This document shows positions 6,830 through 19,376 of a stretch of 35,609 nucleotides of DNA, in pieces. Each line of letters starts with the position of its first letter. Position 1 is the first letter of the stretch. The translations under genes were made by a program, and so were the position numbers. This stretch comes from Ionaspis alba (Eukaryota), in contig CAXUUL010000080.1 in NCBI GenBank assembly GCA_964255285.1, positions 1 to 35,609 of the forward strand, written 5' to 3'. The notes under the pieces are model-generated. The model worked only from the letters and a program-made list of their open reading frames with translations, was not told where the DNA came from and ran no database searches.

Positions 6830-8925
6830 ATGCCGTTTCACCATCAGAAGCGGCGACTCCCCGGCGATGTCTCAGCCATTTTTGTGCATGCCGGAGCAGG
6901 TTATCACAGTGTTCAGAACGAGAAGATTCACTTGCAAGCATGTGCCGAGTATGTTCACTTTGTTTCAGAGTCTACTTACCAGAATTGTGATTGCGCGCGT
7001 CGGCATGTTGCTAATCAAACATATTTAGTGCAACGAAGGCCGCTATGGCTTTTCTGAAGAACGGTGGTAGCGCTGTTGACGCCGTCGAGGTGGCTATTAA
7101 GGTCTTGGAAGACAAGGAAATCACTAATGCAGGATATGGGAGTAATCTAGCCATGGATGGCACAGTCGAGTGTGACGCTACCATTGTTGATCATCTTGGT
7201 CGTAGCGGTGCGTGTGGAGCAGTCGGGCGTAAGTCCCTCGTCATCTCTAATCCACATAGAAGTGGTGGCGATTGACCGATACCAGAAATTCTCAATCCAA
7301 TCCATTTAGCACGACTTGTTCTAGAAAACACCACCAAGCCCATGTCCCTTCGTCGAGTGCCACCGAATCTTCTCGTTGGGCAAGGAGCCGCGGACTTTGC
7401 CTTCGAATCAGGAATGGCCGTTTTACCCCACGATTGCCTCATCTCACAGGGTGCAAAGGAGAGATGGAGGAGGTGGAAATACGATTTGAAAAAGGTCAAA
7501 AGGCAAGCTTCAAGCGGAATGACTAGTGACTTTGAGAATGACAAGTCGGAGGAAGAAAAGCTGGAGCGTCCCCACGTCTCGAGATCTCGGAGTTCTCAGA
7601 ATCGTCTCATGGCTGGACTGCAGAACGAAAGTCAACCATACTCCCCTCAACCCGGACCTTCCAAAGGAGAAGCCAACAGAACACCTGAGTCACATATTCC
7701 AAGCGAGAGCCTTGCAACACCGCAATCGTCACCTCTCTGGCATCAGCTTTACACTGATTCCGCTCCCTCGCCTCAAAGCTGGAAGCATGCTGGAAACCAC
7801 AGTCACGGAGAAGATGGACACAACTCCCAGTATCTGCAAGACTCGATGGATGATGAGACGGATGGCGAGAGTTTCATCGATACTGATCCACAATGGACCC
7901 CATTCAGACCGATACCTGTACCTGCTTCAGAGGGGAAGCACAGAGACGAAACTGGAACCACAACGTCCCCCACCCTCAGTTCGCCATCATTTCCAGCGTC
8001 AATGTCTCCCGACCCAATGGACCGTCCCCATTTCCGCGAGCTCAGTGACCGTGTAGACGACATCACTGACACTGTGGGAGCAATAGCAGTCGATTGCTTC
8101 GGGAACATTGCTGCTGGTTCTTCTTCAGGAGGCATTGGAATGAAGCACAAAGGGCGGACTGGACCGGCCGCTTTAGTTGGAATAGGGACCACTGTCATAC
8201 CTATCGAGTCGGATGACAAGACCAAGACGTGTGTGGCAGCTGTGACGAGTGGTACAGGCGAGCATATGGCTACGACAATGGCTGCCAGTACCTGCGCCAG
8301 GCGCTTGGCAACGAGCACCAAGCGAGGTAAAGGCGGCAAGAGTGTGGTGACTGACGAGGAAGATGCAATGCGACAATTTGTGGAAACAGATTTCATGAGT
8401 ATGTGGAGCCGTGTGATCGTCTATAAAGGGTTCTCGATTGACCTTCACTTAGAACATCCTTCAGTAAAGAGCAGTCACTCCGCCGGCGCCATTGGTGTTA
8501 TGGCAGTTAAGAAGACGGTTGACGGAATGTACCTCCACTTCGCCCACAACACAGACTCCTTTGTAAGAACACTCTCTCTTCGCCAGCCAGTTTATGATAG
8601 CATGAGATTGACTAATGACTGCTACTAGGCACTTGCGTCAATGGATACTGAATCACCTGAACCCGTCTGCGTCATGTCCCGCAGCAAAGGTAGCAACAAA
8701 ATCACAACCGGCGCTCGCAGCTTTAGATACATCGAAGAAACCCGGCCGTCTAAAACACGTCGGATTGTAGATCGCGAGCCGAAAATCAAGAAACAGAAGC
8801 CTTCTAAAGAACCGCGTGTACCTTCACAGCAAGAGATAGATGATAATTGGAGATTCACCATGGCTACAGCGGCTGTCACTACTGCTGCCGCTGGCGCTGC
8901 ATGCAGCGGCGGTGGCGGATGCTAA
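6830..8925 (+). CDS. Taspase1-like threonine aspartase (asparaginase 2 family, Ntn hydrolase)
   Basis: Exons 6830-6948, 7029-7228, 7286-8398, 8453-8562, 8629-8925. IFVHAGAGYHS, TNAGYGSNL...VECDA, autocleavage and nucleophile site ITD/TVGAIAVD, GSSSGGIGMKHKGRTGPAA, TSGTGE. Confidence 0.9.
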
Positions 8926-9546: not shown

Positions 9547-10750
9547 TCAGCCCGGCGTTGCCCCTTCCGCCCTCCTCTCCTTCTTTTTCTTCCTCATAGC
9601 TCTCACAACCGGCTTCTTCCCGTAATCTCCTAACTTTAGCGCCGTCCCGCATGTATAGCAGATCTTCTCCTCTGGCACCTCGCAGAAAATGCTCAAGCAA
9701 ACACTACACACAAAGCCGATATCCACGACGCGTCTATGGCAGAAACATGCGGCACGAAAATCGACCTCTCGCTCTGTAGGTGGAACAAGGTGTTTCCTGG
9801 CTGTTGTGTCGGGAAGGTAGGCGAAGAGTAGGTATTGCAGCAGCCCCTGGGGATGCGTTAAAGAGATGTAGGTCCCTCCTGTGGCGTCTGCTGCTTGCTG
9901 TAATAGAGAGGGTGAGCCGCGAAGGTGTGCGATATCAACCGGGATGCGCAGACGTTGGGCAGCGAAGATTGTGTTCATGAGGGGGATGTAGTGGGATGCA
10001 GAGGCAGGTGAGGCGGTGAGGAGGAAAATGCGTGGGACGAGCGGGATTGGTGCTGCTTGACCGGTTGTGCTGAGTGGTGGGGTCAGAAGGGTGAGCTGTT
10101 TGGAGGTGTAGGTCAGAGCTAGAGTCAACGCGCCGGCAAGAGAGGTATACGATGTCTCGGTAAGGGTGCGAGCGGTGGTGGTAGCTAGAAGACGGGACAG
10201 GGTTTGTCGGAGAGCCACGGCAACCTGGTGGAAAGGACGGTAGACGTTGGCATCGTCAGTGGGATGAGAAGTGTTGGAGTGAATGAGTGAAGGTGGGTGG
10301 CCGTTTGTTTGAACTTTCCGAGAGTTCAGAGCGGCAACATCAGCCATCTCTGTGTCAGAGTCGCCGTTGACCGCCGTAGTGGTTGAGACGCCATTGATTG
10401 TGACGGAGTCGCTGGCTGGGATTGGATAGAGAAACTCGGCGCGTTGGAGATGGCTGGCTATGACGGCTACCTTGTTTGCATTGTTGAAGGCTAGGTGGGC
10501 GTTTATGAAGACAAGGAGATTTGCAACGGCCTTGGACAGCGGTAGAGTGGGAGAAAGCAGGGCCCAGGCATGGGGATTTGTGTCGATTATAATGGTCAGG
10601 AGGGCTGGAGGTGGTTCTGTGGAGCATCAGTATTGCCACAGCTTGAGCAATTATATCAAGCAATCTCATCCACGAGAACAATAGAGAACATCAAAATGCC
10701 TGACCATTTGAAGCTGTATTGTAATGCTCAGAGTCGTCAACATTATCCAT
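9547..10750 (-). CDS. TFB4: TFIIH core subunit Tfb4 (p34)
   Basis: Exons 10750-10705 and 10616-9547. LLTIIIDTNPHAW...LLVFINAHLAFNNANKVAVIASH, YIPLMNTIFAAQR, LQQAADATGG, C-terminal VDFRAACFCH...CSVCLSIFC...CYTC zinc finger. Confidence 0.95.
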
Positions 10751-11158: not shown

Positions 11159-11860
11159 TCAAGCACGCCGAATCTCCCATCTCACATCCTTAATAGTCAC
11201 TTCTTCCGAAGCCTTCTCGTCATAATCGTACCACTCCCCTTCCTGCAAGTCAATCTCTCCGAAAACTGTGGGAGTCTCGAGTCCCTTAGCTTTCCATTGC
11301 CCCTGGCGGTATAGTTAGTATTGTTTGTCTATCTTGTGGCTAGGTTTCACAGACGTCAGCCAGGAATTCAGTGAACTCTAGGCCACGACAATCGAACTCG
11401 ACGATGTTTTGTCGTGTTGGAGGAGATGCGTGCTGGTAGGCGACTGGAGGATTCTTGATGGAAGCTGTAGACTCTCTCTGATCGTACAGTAAACATGTAG
11501 CGCATAACATCTTTAGCCATGAAGGCACTCCAACCTTACATGTCTTGCATTTCCAAACGAAGTTGGCTTCACTTCTGCTGCCAGACACTTCATGAGATTC
11601 CTAGGAAGTGTCACCAAGGATTGCTCCTTCATGTGACAACGTAACGACAAAAACATACAAATCGGTTGAGATTGATCCAATTGGGATGGACGTCCCGACA
11701 TGAAGTACATTGCACTTTGAAGGTAAAGAAATAGGGATCTTCGGGTGTATCGACCGGAGTCAGGTCAGTTACCCTGGTTTACCATTAGCTCGTACTTCTG
11801 ATCAGTTGAAGCAGCATTGTCTCACCCGGTCAAGTCAGCGGTCAGTGTCAAAGCCAGCAT
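11159..11860 (-). CDS. DUF866 / UPF0587 CXXC-motif zinc-binding protein (C1orf123/CZIB-like)
   Basis: Five exons (11860-11826, 11773-11659, 11600-11535, 11477-11355, 11302-11159). MLALTLTADLTGVTDL...FKVQCTSCR...GSRSEANFVWKCKTCKRE...FDCRGLEFTEF...EWYDYDEK. Confidence 0.92.
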
Positions 11861-12100: not shown

Positions 12101-14625
12101 ATGTAGAAGATATGGTCGAGAGTCATAGAAACCAAGTGTACCTATAATTGTCCCTCCTGCTTCTCTCCTCCAACAGCAATCTCGAGGCGCGCAACCACCG
12201 CAGCTGCAAGACGACGACTGCGCTTCGGTGATGTCTTCACGGTGTTCTATTCTTCGATCTTGGCGACTGCGGCGGTAGCAGATGCGAACCGGAAAGATGC
12301 TAGGAGAAAAGACCTCGATGCTTCGATCAAGGAAGTGGGGGATGGATTGAAGGCAATCAAGGCCGATCAAGAGCAGAGGTTAGAAGCTTTGTCGACAAGT
12401 AATTTCGGTCTGTGGAAAGTGACACTCAGCACAATGAGGTTCTAAGAGCTTCTTTCAGCTGCGATTGACTAGTAGAGGTTGCTAGAGCTGGACGACTTGT
12501 GCACGGTGCTGGACCGATCGCAGGTTCGTTGGATTCTGCTCAAGCCACAACAAGAGACCATGCTCTGTCGATAGAATCTGGTCGGGATTGGATCCGAAAG
12601 CCATCGACACACCAGCGAACCATTTCCTTCACTCCTCCGGTAGTCGACAATGAGCAGATCTGCAAGCTGGAGATCGTAGCATCGCGTAAGCAGTCCGACA
12701 ATCATCGCGAAGCCCATCCACAACACTGAGGCGAGAAAGTATTTGAATACTCCCATGGTGCACAAGAAGGAGATCTACAAGCAAGAGAATGAGGCGCCAA
12801 GCAAGCAACTCGGAGGTCACCGCGAATCTCCTCAACATGGCATGAAGGCGGCAATCCTATCAAGCTAGTCGGTAAGGCAGGTGAAGTGAGGAAAGATCCT
12901 GCAAAAACCATGAAAGATGTCCATTCTACATTCAAGAGGTCGCGTCTGAAGCCGGCGTGCACAGCCAGATTATCGAAACTCTGGGTTGCTTCAGCCGTCT
13001 GGCGCAGAATCTCCCTGATACCTACGGATACTCAACCAGTCCAAGAAGTTCAGCAGGACACACCGGTCAAGAGCAAATGAGATAGCAGAAGGAGAGCATT
13101 GGTGGTAGAGTGCTCGGTCTCGAAGTTGATCTATCGCCTTCTCCTTCACATGATCGAGGCCAGAGATGATGGTAGAGCCACATAAGATTTTCCAAACGGT
13201 GAAACTTTGCAATTGTCCGATCATGACAAAGCTGAAATCCACGAGAATATTCAGAAGATGGAGAGTCGTATTCGACAACTGAACATGACCTTTGATCCTC
13301 ATCACCTCGTCTTTCGAGAGGCTTCAGTGCAGCAAATACCCTTTCTCCATTACACACGAGTTGCGAACGCAACAGTGGAACTAGAGCACCTTCACACTCA
13401 CATATCACGGCTTTTTGAGGTCGAATTCAGTGCTCAAAAGACCCTTTCGAAACTCTGCAATCACCTCGTCCGGTCGCCCGACCCACCTGATACCGATACT
13501 TGCAATGTTCTAATTACCCGACTATGCCATTCCCAACCCTAAGACGTAGTTTCTTGCGTGGTGGATTGCATGGATGAATATAAGGTTGGTGCAAATGAAA
13601 CAACTACAGTGGCTCTACTACGCTATTACACCTTGGCCGATCATAGAAGGAAATTCCATGACTACAACAACGGTATGACAGGACAAGATGGTCATGGCCT
13701 GGAGCTAGCTGATCTTTTGGAAGAGGTCACACCAGAGAACAAACATCAGTTTGTCATGTCAAGTTCTATGGCTGCAACTTCCTATCTTGATTATTGCATA
13801 TTCAAGAGGAAGCTGGTCCAGAAAGCCCCAATGAACCATGAGATCTACTCTGCTCTCATTATCGGAATGGCTAAGTTCTCTAACGCAATGGGCGCCGTCG
13901 ATGCGTTTGAGTGCATGGTCAGGGCCGGCTCCGACCCCGATTCAAGTGTCTATCTTGCTATGCTCCGATGCTTTATATGTTTGAGGGACTGAGATGCAGG
14001 AGATGTGATCTGGAAAGTCATTTGTGATAATCTACCTGAGCTGACACAACCGGCTTACTACCGGGTGTTGCAACTATGCGATACATGTGATCAGGACGAG
14101 GCTTTTAACCTCATTCGGGAGCAGGGCATAAACAGTAACTTGGTGAACTCAAATTTGCAGAGGAATTTCGTCCTTCTTGGGGGTTCGTGGCATCTGTTGG
14201 GGAGTCAAGTGAATTTATTACAGGAGCTGCAGTACCATCTATCGTCACTAGATGGTAAGATGGTGGAAGGACATGATTGGTATCATACTACGGAAAGCCC
14301 AAGAATGGTAGTCCAGCCCTTTAGCCTGGCGGAATTAGTGACAAAGGAGCTACAATCACTTTGGTCACGGATGAATATTGAGCAGAGAAGAGTTTTCAAA
14401 GAGATTGAGGAGAGACGAGCCCACGGCATACGTCTCATAAAGAAGTTGTCATCCGGAGAAGTCGCAACCGTCATGAGATTCCGTGGTTCTCGCGTTGTTC
14501 GAGTCCACCGCGCCCTTGGAGAACGACATCGCCAAAGCTCTTACTTCAGACATGGCACCGGAGATGTTGGGGACGTCATTGAAACCAGGTCACAGCCACA
14601 TAGTTCTGAAAGCGGGTTTGAATAG
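12101..14625 (+). pseudogene. Disrupted mitochondrial pentatricopeptide-repeat (PPR)-like gene
   Basis: N-terminus M*KIWSR...CPSC...RRATTAAARRRLRFGDVFTVFYSSILATAAVADANRKDARR resembles the start of a conserved Pezizomycotina PPR-like family. PPR-like helices follow (PDTDTCNVLITRL, ANETTTVALLRYY, NHEIYSALIIGMAK...AFECMVRAGSDPDSSVYLAMLRC). Stops: TAG 12104, TGA 12727, TGA 12790, TGA 13078, TAA 13183, TAA 13540, TGA 13990. A putative intron (12399 to 12472 or 12475) links the two frames. Confidence 0.75.
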
Positions 14626-16111
14626 CCAGCAGAGCATCTGCCCATAGCTACGAGCAAAGTGGTTTCAAAGGTGGACCCGTATATCGTGGGAACGCTGCGC
14701 ATAGGCCGAAGAGGAGCGCTCGTTGGACAAGATCCCAGCTTGTTCCCCTCCGCACGCTGTCTGGGGGTCGATTTTTGCCTGTCTAAGCCTACAGCACTCG
14801 GAATAACGCACGCTGAATCTGCCGTCAAACCTCGTCGTCTGCCGTTCGAGAGATCATCTATTCATCTACCCCCTGCCCCACGTACGCAGTCTCCATGGCC
14901 AAGACTTTCAGGCTATAGCAGACACGGTTCACCATTCTTTATGACTGGTCCACTGCTTACATATCATGCCACTCAAGTTGAATGACCATGCATTGCAATG
15001 TCTATGTCCACTAAATTCTCGCGCCGCAGGGAGCCTGACAGGATAAGCTTGAGTCTTAGTACGCGCAGTCGAACGGCACGTGGAGTCTCTGGGTAAAGGC
15101 CCTTGAACCGGCTTATGAAACATTCCGTGAAAGCTGGTCATTGGCTCGGTCATGACAAGGATCAGTCCGGAAGGGGCTCGAAATCTTTTTCTTGTGGGTG
15201 CCTTTGAATCTTCGTCGATGTCACGGGCTCCATATAACGACCATCAGCATGTGCTGCAGGCGTACTGTCAACATGAAGGTCTGGCAGCCGTGAGCGTGGC
15301 TCTTCGTGTATGTAGCAACAATGGCTAACCAAGCCACGAAGTGATAATGCTAGGCATGATTATGTGATAGTCCCCTCCGTGGCAATTTGATTATCGTTGA
15401 GATGTCCGTGTTCCTTTGTGGACATGCTTTTCTATCCTATCCTTTCAATTTTCGCCACAGATACATATTCGCTCTCGCCAAGACCAATGAATCCTGACAG
15501 GTATAGTCTCGGCCAAAGTTTCTCATCTTGCCAAGGCATGCTTGAATGCCTCGGAGTACCTTTCGATTGATGGCTGGCCCTGATGGTGGTCACTGCCATG
15601 GCTGGAACTTACATCACAGTTTCAGGCATGGTAATAGCGATATTTGATACCAAAGATGATGATTTCGACGCTAGAAGTCGCCTATGACTCCACAATCAGG
15701 AACGAGATTGTAACTCGCTACCCGGGAGTCTGAAATATATCACTCAGGAGCCAGCAGTCACTACTGGGAATTAAAACCTAATTGTAATTCGGACCAACTG
15801 AAAGGCAACCACGTTTGAACCGAAATGACTGCGGCTCCATGTCAGAGTCAGGCCTTCGGTTTCTGGCTCCTCATCAGGTCATCTTGCACATCATGAGTGC
15901 TGTTTCTGCTTCTCCATATCTCATCGTGCCCCCGCGCTCTCGACCAAGATTCGTGCTTACTATATTGGAGAGCAGAGACACCAGCATCCATCACTCAGAA
16001 CGATATTCTTTATACTGGAGATTTGCTTCAAGTACGCATCGAGTTATCGTTCTCCAAGGCTTCGTTCCGGTCACAATCAACCGCCATCTTGCAGCTAGCT
16101 ACCGCCTCAAA

Positions 16112-16494
16112 ATGTGCAAAGTCACCTGCAACCAGTACACGGCCTGCTACGCAGACTGTCCCAAGCGCGGCTTCTTTGAAACCAGGAGACGCTGCTATTG
16201 GTTTGGGATGAAGCCGTGCCTCAGCACATTCGTTCAAAAACTGCTGCGTAGGAAATGCTGGAGGTGCACCAGGGTGATGCATGCCAACAACCTGGANNNN
16301 NNNNNNNNNNNNNNNNNNNNNNNNNNNNNNNNNNNNNNNNNNNNNNNNNNNNNNNNNNNNNNNNNNNNNNNNNNNNNNNNNNNNNNNNNNNNNNNNTGCT
16401 GCGTAGGAAATGCTGGAGGTGCACCAGGGTGATGCATGCCAACAACCTGGAAGTGGAGGGAAGTGAAATCACGTGGAGAGAGGTCCGATGGTGA
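16112..16494 (+). CDS. Small cysteine-rich hypothetical protein (75 aa once the assembly gap is collapsed)
   Basis: ATG in CAAAATG context. Joining 16112-16296 to 16452-16494 gives 228 nt: MCKVTCNQYTACYADCPKRGFFETRRRCYWFGMKPCLSTFVQKLLRRKCWRCTRVMHANNLEVEGSEITWREVRW*, with 8 Cys. Confidence 0.55.
16242..16451. other. 100-N scaffold gap flanked by an exact 55-bp direct duplication (overlapping contig ends)
   Basis: 16242-16296 is identical to 16397-16451; the N run covers 16297-16396. Confidence 0.92.
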
Positions 16495-16707: not shown

Positions 16708-19376
16708 TCAGTAACCACCGGTTCCACTAGCCCCATGATATCCGCCCTGTCCTTGCGGCGGTTGCTCGTACCCATAAGCGTATGCTCCAGGCCCATGCTG
16801 TCCGAGATTCTGTTCCGGCTGATAAGATGGTGCTTGGGAGCTGGCGTCGTACCCATATCCGTGCTGAGGATATCCGTGCTGTGGGTAGCCTTCGCTGGTG
16901 CCTTGTCCATAGCCTTGCTGTTGCTGCCCATAATCCTGCCCGTAGACTTGTGGTGGAGGAGCGCCATATGTGTTATGATTCTGGTCCGGAGGTGGCGGGG
17001 AGGCATAAGCTGACTGATTGTAGGTGTCCTGCTGGTATGATGACTCGTGCTGCGAGTAAGGTGCGTGCTCAAATTGAGGCTGGCCATACTGGTACTCATT
17101 CGCAGGACCAGTCGGAGGACGGGTAGCATCGAAGGATGTTGATGTACCTGGGAAGATGGAGCCGATGGTGTTTGTGTTTCCATGCCCGGATTCGTCGATT
17201 CCATCGCGAGTGAGACCTGTAGCCTTTCCTAGCTTACTGAGCTTCTCCCATGGGGCGCCAGCGACTTTACTGTGAGAGCCCGTGCCTCCGCCAGATCCGA
17301 AGATGTTTCCCATTTGTGGCAAGCTTCCATGGTTATGGGGAGCATGAACAGGGTCATAAGAGCCACCTGAGTGGTTTTTCCCTGCACGAACACCTTCAGA
17401 GCTCAGGATGTGTTCGAGATTGGCACCACGGTTAGGCTGTTTGTGCGCCCACTGCTCAACAACGTTGAACATCTTGGTGTGAAGGTCGCAATGTGGGTCG
17501 CGATTTGCGGGATGATGGAAGACACGCGCGACATCGTTGAGGACCTCGTCGAGTGGAACGTCGGGGTGTTCCCAAGCGAACAGAATACGAGGCGCGACGT
17601 ACTGGAGGATAGTCGCAGCAACCTGACCTGCTGGCTCGTTGAGGACATTGCTGAAATGATCTTTTGAGAGAAGAGAATGTGTTGGATCGGAGCAGTGAGG
17701 ATCGGTCCAAACTTCGTACTGGTGTTTGCCGCTAGCGTCAACGACCGTAGAAGAGCCCATTTTGAGCTGTTTGGAAACAGCAGTGATGATGGGTCTTATA
17801 AAGGGCGCGAGAAGGGATAGTACGAAGAGCGTCAGGGTTTCGGTGATCTTTTCTACAAGGGCCTCTAGACCAGGAATCTTTTCAATGGTGGCCGAGATGG
17901 CTTTGACGACCTTATCGCGGAATTCCAGTATCGGGTATATTTGAGCGGCGGTCTTGGCCGGATCGAAGTTTGGGCTCATGCCCGGGATACCTGGGCCGGG
18001 CGGACCACCGACTGAACCTGGGGGAGCTTGGAAAGTCTGTGTCTGACCTGGCTGAGAAGAACGTGAGTCCCCATAGTTGTGCTGCGAAGCAAGCATTCGC
18101 TCTTGTGCTTGAGACTGCGCCTGTAGCTGCTCGGCTTCCTGACACAATGCGCCGGCACCTGGAACTTGAGAGAGCAAGCCAGTCAAAGCCGAGGCTTGTG
18201 TCTGAGAAGGGGGGCCAAAGTTTCGCGAGGCGGGCGCCGAGGATTGCTTCGAATGTGTTTGAGCATCTCCAAGAGCAATGTCCATCTCATCGATCTCTGT
18301 TTGAGCCAAATTATCTGTTGCTTCTCCGACCACTGAATGCAGAAAGTCGACCGCTCCGAAGGTGCCGGTCACCAGGGGAAAGACATGTTTCCCACGGAGG
18401 CTGATTTCCGTTGCGGTTCCAGTATGAGGAAAGACATTTCTGAACCCAATTTCTCGAAGCGCAAGTTCCGTGTAGTTTGTATGAGCACCAAAGTCCTCCA
18501 AACAATGCAGTCCTTGACCCAAGCATCTTAATGCTTCACATAGGTCGGCTTCTTTTCCCTTGGTACTATGAGAGCCACTGGTGTACAAACGGCCAAAATG
18601 AATGCTTCTACTGAAGCTATGCTTGATATAGCCAGAGCTGGTGGCAATTCCAAGGTTCTCATTGGCAATATAGTTCTTCATGCCTGTTTGGGGGTCGACT
18701 TGGAGCTCGATAGGCTGCACAGGAGGCCGTAGTCTCGTGTCGTATTGTCGTGCGTCCTGATTATCGGCGTAATCTTTGGGATTGTCGATATGCTCTTCCG
18801 GCCTATATGTCCCGAGGCGCTCCTCCGTGACCTCAAATTCAGCTGCGTCAAGGTCAGTTTGAATCTCCTTTTGATGTATGGGAGGTCGTACCCGTAGCAT
18901 ATCCAAAACTCAGAAAGCTCAAGACCCACACCAAGATTCTGCCCACAATCAGCTGTCTATCACCTCTAAGGCTTCTTCATAGTATCCTTCCTCGACGTAC
19001 CTGATAGTCCCTGCCTGAACTCCCTTCAACGTCCCCACATCAACGGCCTGGCTGTAGTCTCTGAGCCAGTTCCCGAAATACACCCTCTTGACCATCATCG
19101 ACGTCCATTTATGGCCCTTGATAAACGCCACGGTCTTGAGCATGTCTTCGATGTCGCCATGGCGCCAATTACGGCCTTCGATCTTGGCTATCGAAGCTGA
19201 AACCTTGTAAGCATGGCGTGGAAGTCGAGGACACTAGAATAAGAGTACTGACCGATGTTTCCTGCGCCAAACGCTGCAGCAGGAGAAGCTTGTAGGACGA
19301 CTAGGGCGAGCACGAGAAGGCAGACTGTGCCGGGGCTCATAGCACTAGAGGTACCCATACTGGTGGAATGTGACAT
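16708..19376 (-). CDS. het-c: HET-C family heterokaryon incompatibility protein (het-c/hch-like)
   Basis: Exons 19376-19253, 19196-19001, 18938-18892, 18842-16708. Signal peptide, then AFGAGNIASIAKIEGRNWRHGDIED, VYFGNWLRDYSQAVDVG, EFEVTEERLG, HIDNPKDY, LHCLEDFGAHTNY, DPTHSLLSKDHF; G/Y/Q-rich tail. The start could instead be a downstream Met in exon 1. Confidence 0.93.

Follow-up and report, generated by a model that had tools for sequence, protein, structure and literature searches.

The 35,609 nucleotides of Ionaspis alba DNA analysed here (contig CAXUUL010000080.1 of assembly GCA_964255285.1; in the following, the window) contain a PPR-like gene whose start codon is followed directly by a stop codon. 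Is this gene dead, and if so, is it a discarded duplicate or the remains of the only copy that the fungus had? The original prediction, made from the letters alone, had counted seven nonsense codons and proposed two histories, a dead or RIPed duplicate or a unitary loss after the mitochondrial target of the gene was lost or moved to the nucleus. The parts of the disabled gene are listed below, where X1 and X2 are sequencing runs that were compared with the window as Logan contigs.

12101..14625 (+): pseudogene from a PPR family that spans the Pezizomycotina, some 840 codons with an uncertain 3' end (homology searches, family profile)
12101..12223 (+): start codon and presequence-like N-terminus with the CxCxxC motif of the family (homologue alignment; presumed targeting)
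12104..12106 (+): stop 1, a TAG directly after the start codon, where 93 of 124 homologues have Gln; probably CAG to TAG
12224..12400 (+): moderately hydrophobic helix (codons 42-60), then a long helix; best conserved block, 44-67% identity to homologues
12419..12424 (+): probable -1 frameshift from the ATG frame to the body frame (three of four Xylographa-group alignments; intron-free orthologues)
12466..12468 (+): stop 2, TGA, revealed by the frameshift near 12421 and absent from the original prediction
12727..12729 (+): stop 3, TGA, variable linker; no alternative letter listed in runs X1 or X2
12790..12792 (+): stop 4, TGA, variable linker (sequence, run contigs)
13078..13080 (+): stop 5, TGA, polymorphic; CGA on the deeper X1 contig (85 of 133 in depth)
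13183..13185 (+): stop 6, TAA where the closest relatives have Leu/Val (homologue alignment, run contigs)
13440..14160 (+): core of the PPR solenoid, for which an intact orthologue has about seven helix pairs (PF13041, family profile, model of orthologue P0009)
13540..13542 (+): stop 7, TAA at a Tyr position; third base probably polymorphic in X1, judged from contig ends (letter not listed)
13990..13992 (+): stop 8, a TGA where 104 of 124 homologues have Trp; probably TGG to TGA
14070..14070 (+): one-base insertion, a second frameshift, on a minor X1 haplotype (40 of 110 in depth) and not in the window

The ATG at 12101 is indeed followed by a TAG at 12104, and the six later stops that had been predicted (12727, 12790, 13078, 13183, 13540 and 13990) are all present, in one frame that runs from 12469 to the TAG at 14623-14625. 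However, the claim that no frameshift is obligatory was not confirmed. The conserved N-terminal block (12101-12400) and the PPR body are read in two different frames. In frameshift-aware alignments with four Xylographa-group proteins the frames are joined by a -1 shift, which three of the proteins place at 12421-12424 and the remaining one at 12469; a fifth, more distant protein aligned with the first block only. Because the two frames differ and all 30 orthologous loci are free of introns, there is a frameshift at about 12420, and with it an eighth stop at 12466. In total, the lesions amount to eight stops (one TAG, five TGA, two TAA) and at least one frameshift. The body frame is clearly not random, as between 13033 and 14160 it contains four stops against 16 and 26 in the other two forward frames, and it scores 238 bits with the family profile. 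The linker (12470-13030) aligns poorly and may hide paired compensating shifts.

At the 3' end, the body frame stays open for 119 codons past 14625 (14626-14985, +) and the closest relatives have 936-1106 amino acids, so the TAG at 14623-14625 may itself be premature, as a ninth such stop. Homology could be shown only up to about 14300, which leaves the position of the true stop uncertain.

A 74-base GT-AG intron (12399-12472) that would bridge the two frames is disfavoured, as each of the 30 orthologous loci is one uninterrupted ORF. Downstream of the branch-like CTAAG (12442), the first YAG has its end at 12459, which would lead into the wrong frame.

Could the gene still be expressed, by A-to-I correction of its stops, by readthrough or by splicing? 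Correction of premature stops exists in filamentous ascomycetes, according to the available part of PMC10776026. In the present gene the best conserved columns are intact, and the GT-AG pair could join the frames. However, the system described in that part of the source acts on UAG stops of Sordariomycetes, where 6 of 71 genes have two sites. The corrected pseudogenes in Fusarium graminearum as well as Neurospora crassa are likewise conserved genes with premature stops, but one or two TAGs in an otherwise open frame would be expected of them. Here there are eight stops, seven of them not TAG, in a lineage outside the Sordariomycetes; the stops vary between haplotypes, the orthologues are intron-free, and A-to-I editing cannot mend a frameshift. 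We therefore consider continued expression extremely improbable.

The PPR-like identity, in contrast to the frame, was recognised correctly from the start. A search with the N-terminal block gave 14 proteins, their profile gave 70, and a wider profile raised the number to 561 clusters with E values of 1e-30 or better. Those members that carry a name belong to Lecanoromycetes, Candelaria, Sarcosagium, Leotiomycetes and Dothideomycetes. PF13041 is found above its cut-off in the orthologues P0003, P0004 and P0009, while the read-through of the pseudogene matches at E 9.4e-5, below the curated cut-off. By homology, the pseudogene belongs to a PPR family that is found across filamentous ascomycetes. 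The structural model of P0009, i.e., of an orthologue and not of the pseudogene itself, has a pLDDT of 77 and forms a PPR-type helix-turn-helix solenoid; its top Foldseek and VIA matches are designed PPR proteins (Z 16.4, rmsd 5.8, 248 aligned).

Proteins of the family begin with an N-terminus that is basic and acid-free and contains CxCxxC; then follow a weakly hydrophobic helix (42-60), a variable linker and the PPR core. Over the first 42 residues, 145 homologues have on average 0.1 acidic and 7.5 basic residues, and 130 of them have the CxCxxC motif. In the orthologue model a helix covers 42-93; the hydropathy is 1.49 for the hydrophobic helix. From the fold and the roles of fungal PPR proteins, the ancestral protein would have been mitochondrial and would have bound RNA. 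A CxCxxC motif would be unusual in a targeting signal that is cleaved off; the gene also has a CXXC zinc-binding protein as its head-to-head neighbour.

In a FastTree tree of 39 selected rows the read-through groups with Xylographa, Lambiella and Trapelia (support 95), but its branch is long (1.59), which makes the placement unsure, and its closest intact orthologue is at best 31% identical. A Pfam scan of the four separate ORF fragments gave no match, and neither did a homology search with the middle fragment (13543-13989). PDB sequence and fold searches gave generic PPR proteins, with no named fungal orthologue among the matches listed. The ESM Atlas gave only unnamed ascomycete PPR clusters, with no usable match for the N-terminal 300 residues.

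Next, the position of the gene bears on whether it is a duplicate. Its neighbours on the other side of the start codon are:

6830..8679 (+): Asparaginase_2/taspase-like gene, in the syntenic block of 14 of 30 loci
9547..10626 (-): Tfb4 gene, open frame, in the syntenic block of 12 of 30 loci
11159..11860 (-): intact DUF866/CXXC zinc-binding gene (PF05907), conserved head-to-head neighbour (Pfam, synteny, stop-free exons)

The intact head-to-head neighbour seen earlier at 240 bp is thus the DUF866/CXXC gene, with its ATG at 11860 (-), 240 bases from 12101. For comparison, 31 orthologous loci were retrieved, from which a short unrelated PPR match (L057) was dropped; five of the remaining 30 are cut by a contig end. 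All 30 are uninterrupted, and at 90% identity they fall into 14 groups. In 27 of them the DUF866 gene is the head-to-head neighbour, and the other three have 506 bases or fewer upstream. Since the DUF866, taspase-like and Tfb4 neighbours are shared with 27, 14 and 12 of the 30 loci, the window contains the ancestral locus of the family.

Is there another copy elsewhere? Searches of the assembly with two window peptides, an intact orthologue and a DNA query found only the locus itself. The family profile scores 247 and 157 bits at the pseudogene and at most 36.5 bits at the other PPR loci of the assembly. These negatives are limited by the assembly, which has 18.3 Mb in 1282 contigs and may be incomplete; PF00137, for instance, matched only two V-ATPase c genes in it. 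The sequencing runs extend the search, although a third run, X3, gave no matching contig. At 80% likeness, a single X1 contig covers 11300-13012 (depth 101), the depth inside the pseudogene is 93-121, and no contig is less than 90% alike. An intact paralog, which had been named as evidence against a unitary loss, was found neither in the assembly nor in the X1 contigs; as some contigs are filtered from the run comparison, a distant intact copy could in principle exist.

A dead copy left by duplication or by a hybrid subgenome, with the intact working copy in unassembled DNA, is favoured by the small and fragmented assembly. The CENP-L gene is also broken, and fractionation after a genome doubling could produce such a pattern. 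However, it is the broken copy that occupies the ancestral locus, and the X1 contigs contain no second copy of the pseudogene or of its DUF866 neighbour at 80% likeness, although the same comparison did recover an 82% match from another fungus in X2. The depth is also flat over the gene and its neighbour. A hidden working copy is therefore improbable, and the reading as a dead duplicate was not upheld.

RIP of a duplicate fares still worse. Its best arguments are that one stop fits CAG to TAG at CpA and that 22 of the 28 listed X1 differences are transitions. RIPed DNA has a raised TpA/ApT and is depleted in CpA+TpG. The RIP indices, proposed originally as a check, are at background here: TpA/ApT is 0.58 and does not rise over the 0.66 of the whole window, (CpA+TpG)/(ApC+GpT) is 1.34 against 1.28, and GC, at 48.6%, agrees with the rest of the window. 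In addition, a near-identical second copy was not found, the sole DNA match in the assembly being the locus itself. Among the substitutions first suggested for the stops, CAG to TAG is supported (Gln in 93 of 124 homologues) but CAA to TAA is not, as the closest relatives have Leu/Val and Tyr where the TAAs stand. The stops further include CGA to TGA, as an X1 allele shows, TGG to TGA and two probable transversions. In the assembly, which may be incomplete, there is also just one C5 methyltransferase match. We consider the inactivation by RIP very unlikely indeed.

This sole C5 DNA methyltransferase match (C72:8790-9008) is presumably DNMT5-like. No RID- or DIM-2-like methyltransferase was matched in the assembly, which could reflect a loss or an assembly gap.

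What then remains of the two original histories is the unitary nature of the loss, as the locus is syntenic and no second copy was found; the proposed cause of the loss is discussed below. We conclude that the locus is, with high probability, a unitary pseudogene. It is the only detected copy of its family, decayed at its ancestral place, i.e., a natural knockout of an otherwise ordinary kind of gene loss. Like other unitary pseudogenes it has several disabling lesions, a syntenic position, no paralogue found and neutral-looking variation. Nothing is different in kind from these, and what is unusual is only the gene family, which has 561 clusters and no broken gene among the 30 loci.

Base-call errors had to be considered, but a separate assembly of X1, at a depth of about 100, carries the stops. 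Stop 1 is present on the X1 contig of depth 101, and the X1 contigs have no indel near 12420. Neither run is independent evidence, since X1 could stem from the very sample of the window and X2, from the same study and with a depth of about 3, could be carry-over. The possible origin of X1 from the source sample and six places at which the window differs from the main X1 contigs speak for an artefact of assembly or base calling, but the same stops in a separate assembly and the stop-free neighbouring genes speak against it, and the chance of such an artefact is minimal. As Logan contigs collapse simple variants, sense alleles on minor haplotypes may be hidden.

The runs also show variation within the pseudogene. 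Over 13013-14170, X1 contains two or three haplotypes with depths of about 65, 44 and 38, which differ by up to nine differences and an indel in 163 bases. The X1 sample is a mixture of genotypes or heterozygous. From the positions at which its contigs end, a further variant that the listing lacks is deduced at 13542, where stop 13540 has its third base; the same rule fits the other bubbles.

Variation of this kind can be used to ask whether selection still acts. Between 13033 and 14140, 15 of the 21 X1 variants are non-synonymous and six synonymous, which agrees with the neutral expectation of 22-29% synonymous (p 0.81); an omega of 0.2 is rejected (p 0.0009), while in this small sample an omega of 0.5 is not rejected (p 0.27). 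In the exons of the DUF866 neighbour both X1 variants (2 of 2) are synonymous. The haplotype variation in the pseudogene thus looks neutral. Over 13411-13572 each haplotype has its own change at a conserved residue. The window has Cys at 13502 where the other haplotypes have the Tyr of the motif, and Arg at 14062 where one haplotype has Trp, while other haplotypes have changes of their own at a conserved Pro and Leu.

The time since death can be estimated roughly. Seven to eight stops imply about 6.5-9.5% divergence since then, with a wide error (the Poisson range for eight stops is 3.5-15.8). All 19 columns that are conserved at 90% are intact in the read-through, as are 37 of the 46 conserved at 80%, of which five close relatives keep 85-96%. 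As 25 of the 124 intact homologues score as low as the read-through on the 80% columns, conserved residues have decayed less than the 14-18% that the stop count would predict, which speaks against heavy decay.

What might the lost protein have done? We suggest that the ancestor combined an N-terminus resembling a mitochondrial presequence with a weakly hydrophobic helix and a PPR solenoid; the architecture is seen in the orthologues, while the location and the RNA binding are those deduced above. It would probably have stabilised or processed one or a few mitochondrial transcripts, or aided their translation. The reference set for such a role are the fungal mitochondrial P-type PPR factors, which include Pet309, Aep2, Aep3 and Sov1 of S. 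cerevisiae, Ppr4/7/11/13 of C. albicans, and Cya-5, NCU07684 and NCU08674 of N. crassa. Mitochondrial PPR factors are described in the available parts of PMC11630760, PMC7874006 and PMC5295593 for C. albicans and N. crassa, and in those of PMC5449143 (Aep3) and PMC7337963 (Sov1) for yeast. Filamentous ascomycetes have few PPR proteins, and for a minority of these a target has been assigned; in N. crassa the number is given as nine (cited in PMC7874006 and PMC11630760). The present family resembles these factors in its PPR solenoid, its presequence-like N-terminus, its low sequence conservation and its single copy.

No orthology to a named yeast or Neurospora factor was found by sequence. Synteny offers a hint: in the supplement of PMC12506109, the N. 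crassa DUF866 gene is NCU08505, and its numerical neighbours NCU08504 and NCU08506 are each a 'hypothetical protein'. If the head-to-head pair holds there, the N. crassa orthologue may be one of these two, a proposal from synteny and not from sequence. By the same synteny it would be none of Cya-5, NCU07684 and NCU08674 (Solotoff et al. 2015, as cited in the available part of PMC11630760). No paper was found on NCU08504 or NCU08506, and our search of the fungal PPR literature found no study that deals with this family or with a pseudogenised PPR gene of a lichen fungus.

The history that we propose for the unitary pseudogene is that the gene became dispensable in this lineage, that selection ceased, and that point mutations and one indel then accumulated at the original locus. 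Respiration appears to be retained, judging from the open frames of other PPR genes and of a complex I subunit. PF13041 has 18 matches on 10 other contigs, all stop-free inside (C4 holds three, and the one on C237 runs into a gap); one of these loci, whose match is also stop-free, we take to be the mitochondrial RNA polymerase. The genes of ATP13 (PF12921, C416) and of the complex I 49-kDa subunit are open, with no stop within the matches. As ten other PPR-like loci are free of stops, the loss is specific to this PPR gene.

As an example of a lost target, atp9 had been named. A loss of the PPR gene through the loss or nuclear transfer of mitochondrial atp9 has some appeal: according to the accessible part of PMC6467859, atp9 is the sole variable core gene among 58 lichen mitogenomes, and the available text of PMC5449143 offers a precedent in yeast, where a nuclear ATP8 bypasses the PPR factor Aep3. 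Mitochondrial atp9 is reported lost in four Pseudogymnoascus species (PMC6877775, in part), with an atp9 fragment retained in P. destructans (PMC7799954, in part); further losses are reported in Alectoria fallacina (bioRxiv 10.1101/2021.03.17.435722) and in Xanthoparmelia (PMC12886410, in part). However, full-length family members are found in five Pseudogymnoascus proteins, in Alectoria sarmentosa and in Cornicularia, to be set against the absence of atp9 from the four Pseudogymnoascus species and A. fallacina, which are congeners and not the same strains. Genera without atp9 in their sequenced mitochondria thus still have full-length members of the family, which makes atp9 an improbable target. 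The ATP13/Aep2-type gene, i.e., the atp9 factor, is open in this genome and is a different locus, as PF12921 was not reported for the five orthologues scanned and has its only match in the assembly on contig C416. PF00137 matches two V-ATPase c genes (contigs C11 and C620) but neither a third V-ATPase c gene nor a nuclear ATP9 in the assembly, a weak negative. PF13929 (Atp25) gave no match anywhere, not even in the controls, and is therefore uninformative. We give the atp9 explanation little credence.

This leaves a change in a core transcript, a change in the rnl intron or rps3, or plain dispensability. The assembly itself does not help to choose, as cox1 was not found and the assembly is without mitochondrial DNA; cox2, nad3 and rps3/VAR1 were found neither as mitochondrial genes nor as nuclear transfers, blanks that are weak negatives, and atp8 gave one spurious match inside another gene, an equally weak negative.

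We weigh two routes to dispensability about evenly, namely that the mitochondrial RNA changed (UTR, intron or transcript layout), or that a non-essential accessory factor was dropped amid a general loss of conserved genes. More narrowly, it can be tentatively speculated that the PPR gene was lost because a mitogenome element kept by most filamentous ascomycetes was lost or rewired. Candidates would then be the rnl intron with rps3, the UTR of a core mRNA or a processing site. As the family survives in Pseudogymnoascus, whose small mitogenomes lack atp9 and have no more than one or two introns, such an element would be a core feature.

The CENP-L gene of the same genome (C670:4144-5145) has stops inside three of four matches. 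This broken CENP-L favours a general shedding of conserved genes, and together with the PPR gene it would make this a lichen-type fungus that is shedding conserved single-copy genes. The relic at 12101 proves a recent natural loss of the family rather than an assembly gap, and it permits a cheap comparison of mitogenomes. If a mitochondrial element was lost, the comparison with Xylographa, Lambiella and Trapelia would name the target of a conserved PPR family, while an ordinary mitogenome would merely show that the family is dispensable.

Downstream of the pseudogene, three minor features were observed in the window. A Het-C gene with an open frame of 733 codons (16708-18909, -) lies 2 kb away and was not seen beside the orthologues in the retrieved loci. 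Between the two, an N run at about 16298-16396 (within 16244-16450) has the same stretch of about 50 bases on both flanks and resembles a scaffolding artefact. From a start near 16113, a small ORF rich in Cys enters this run.
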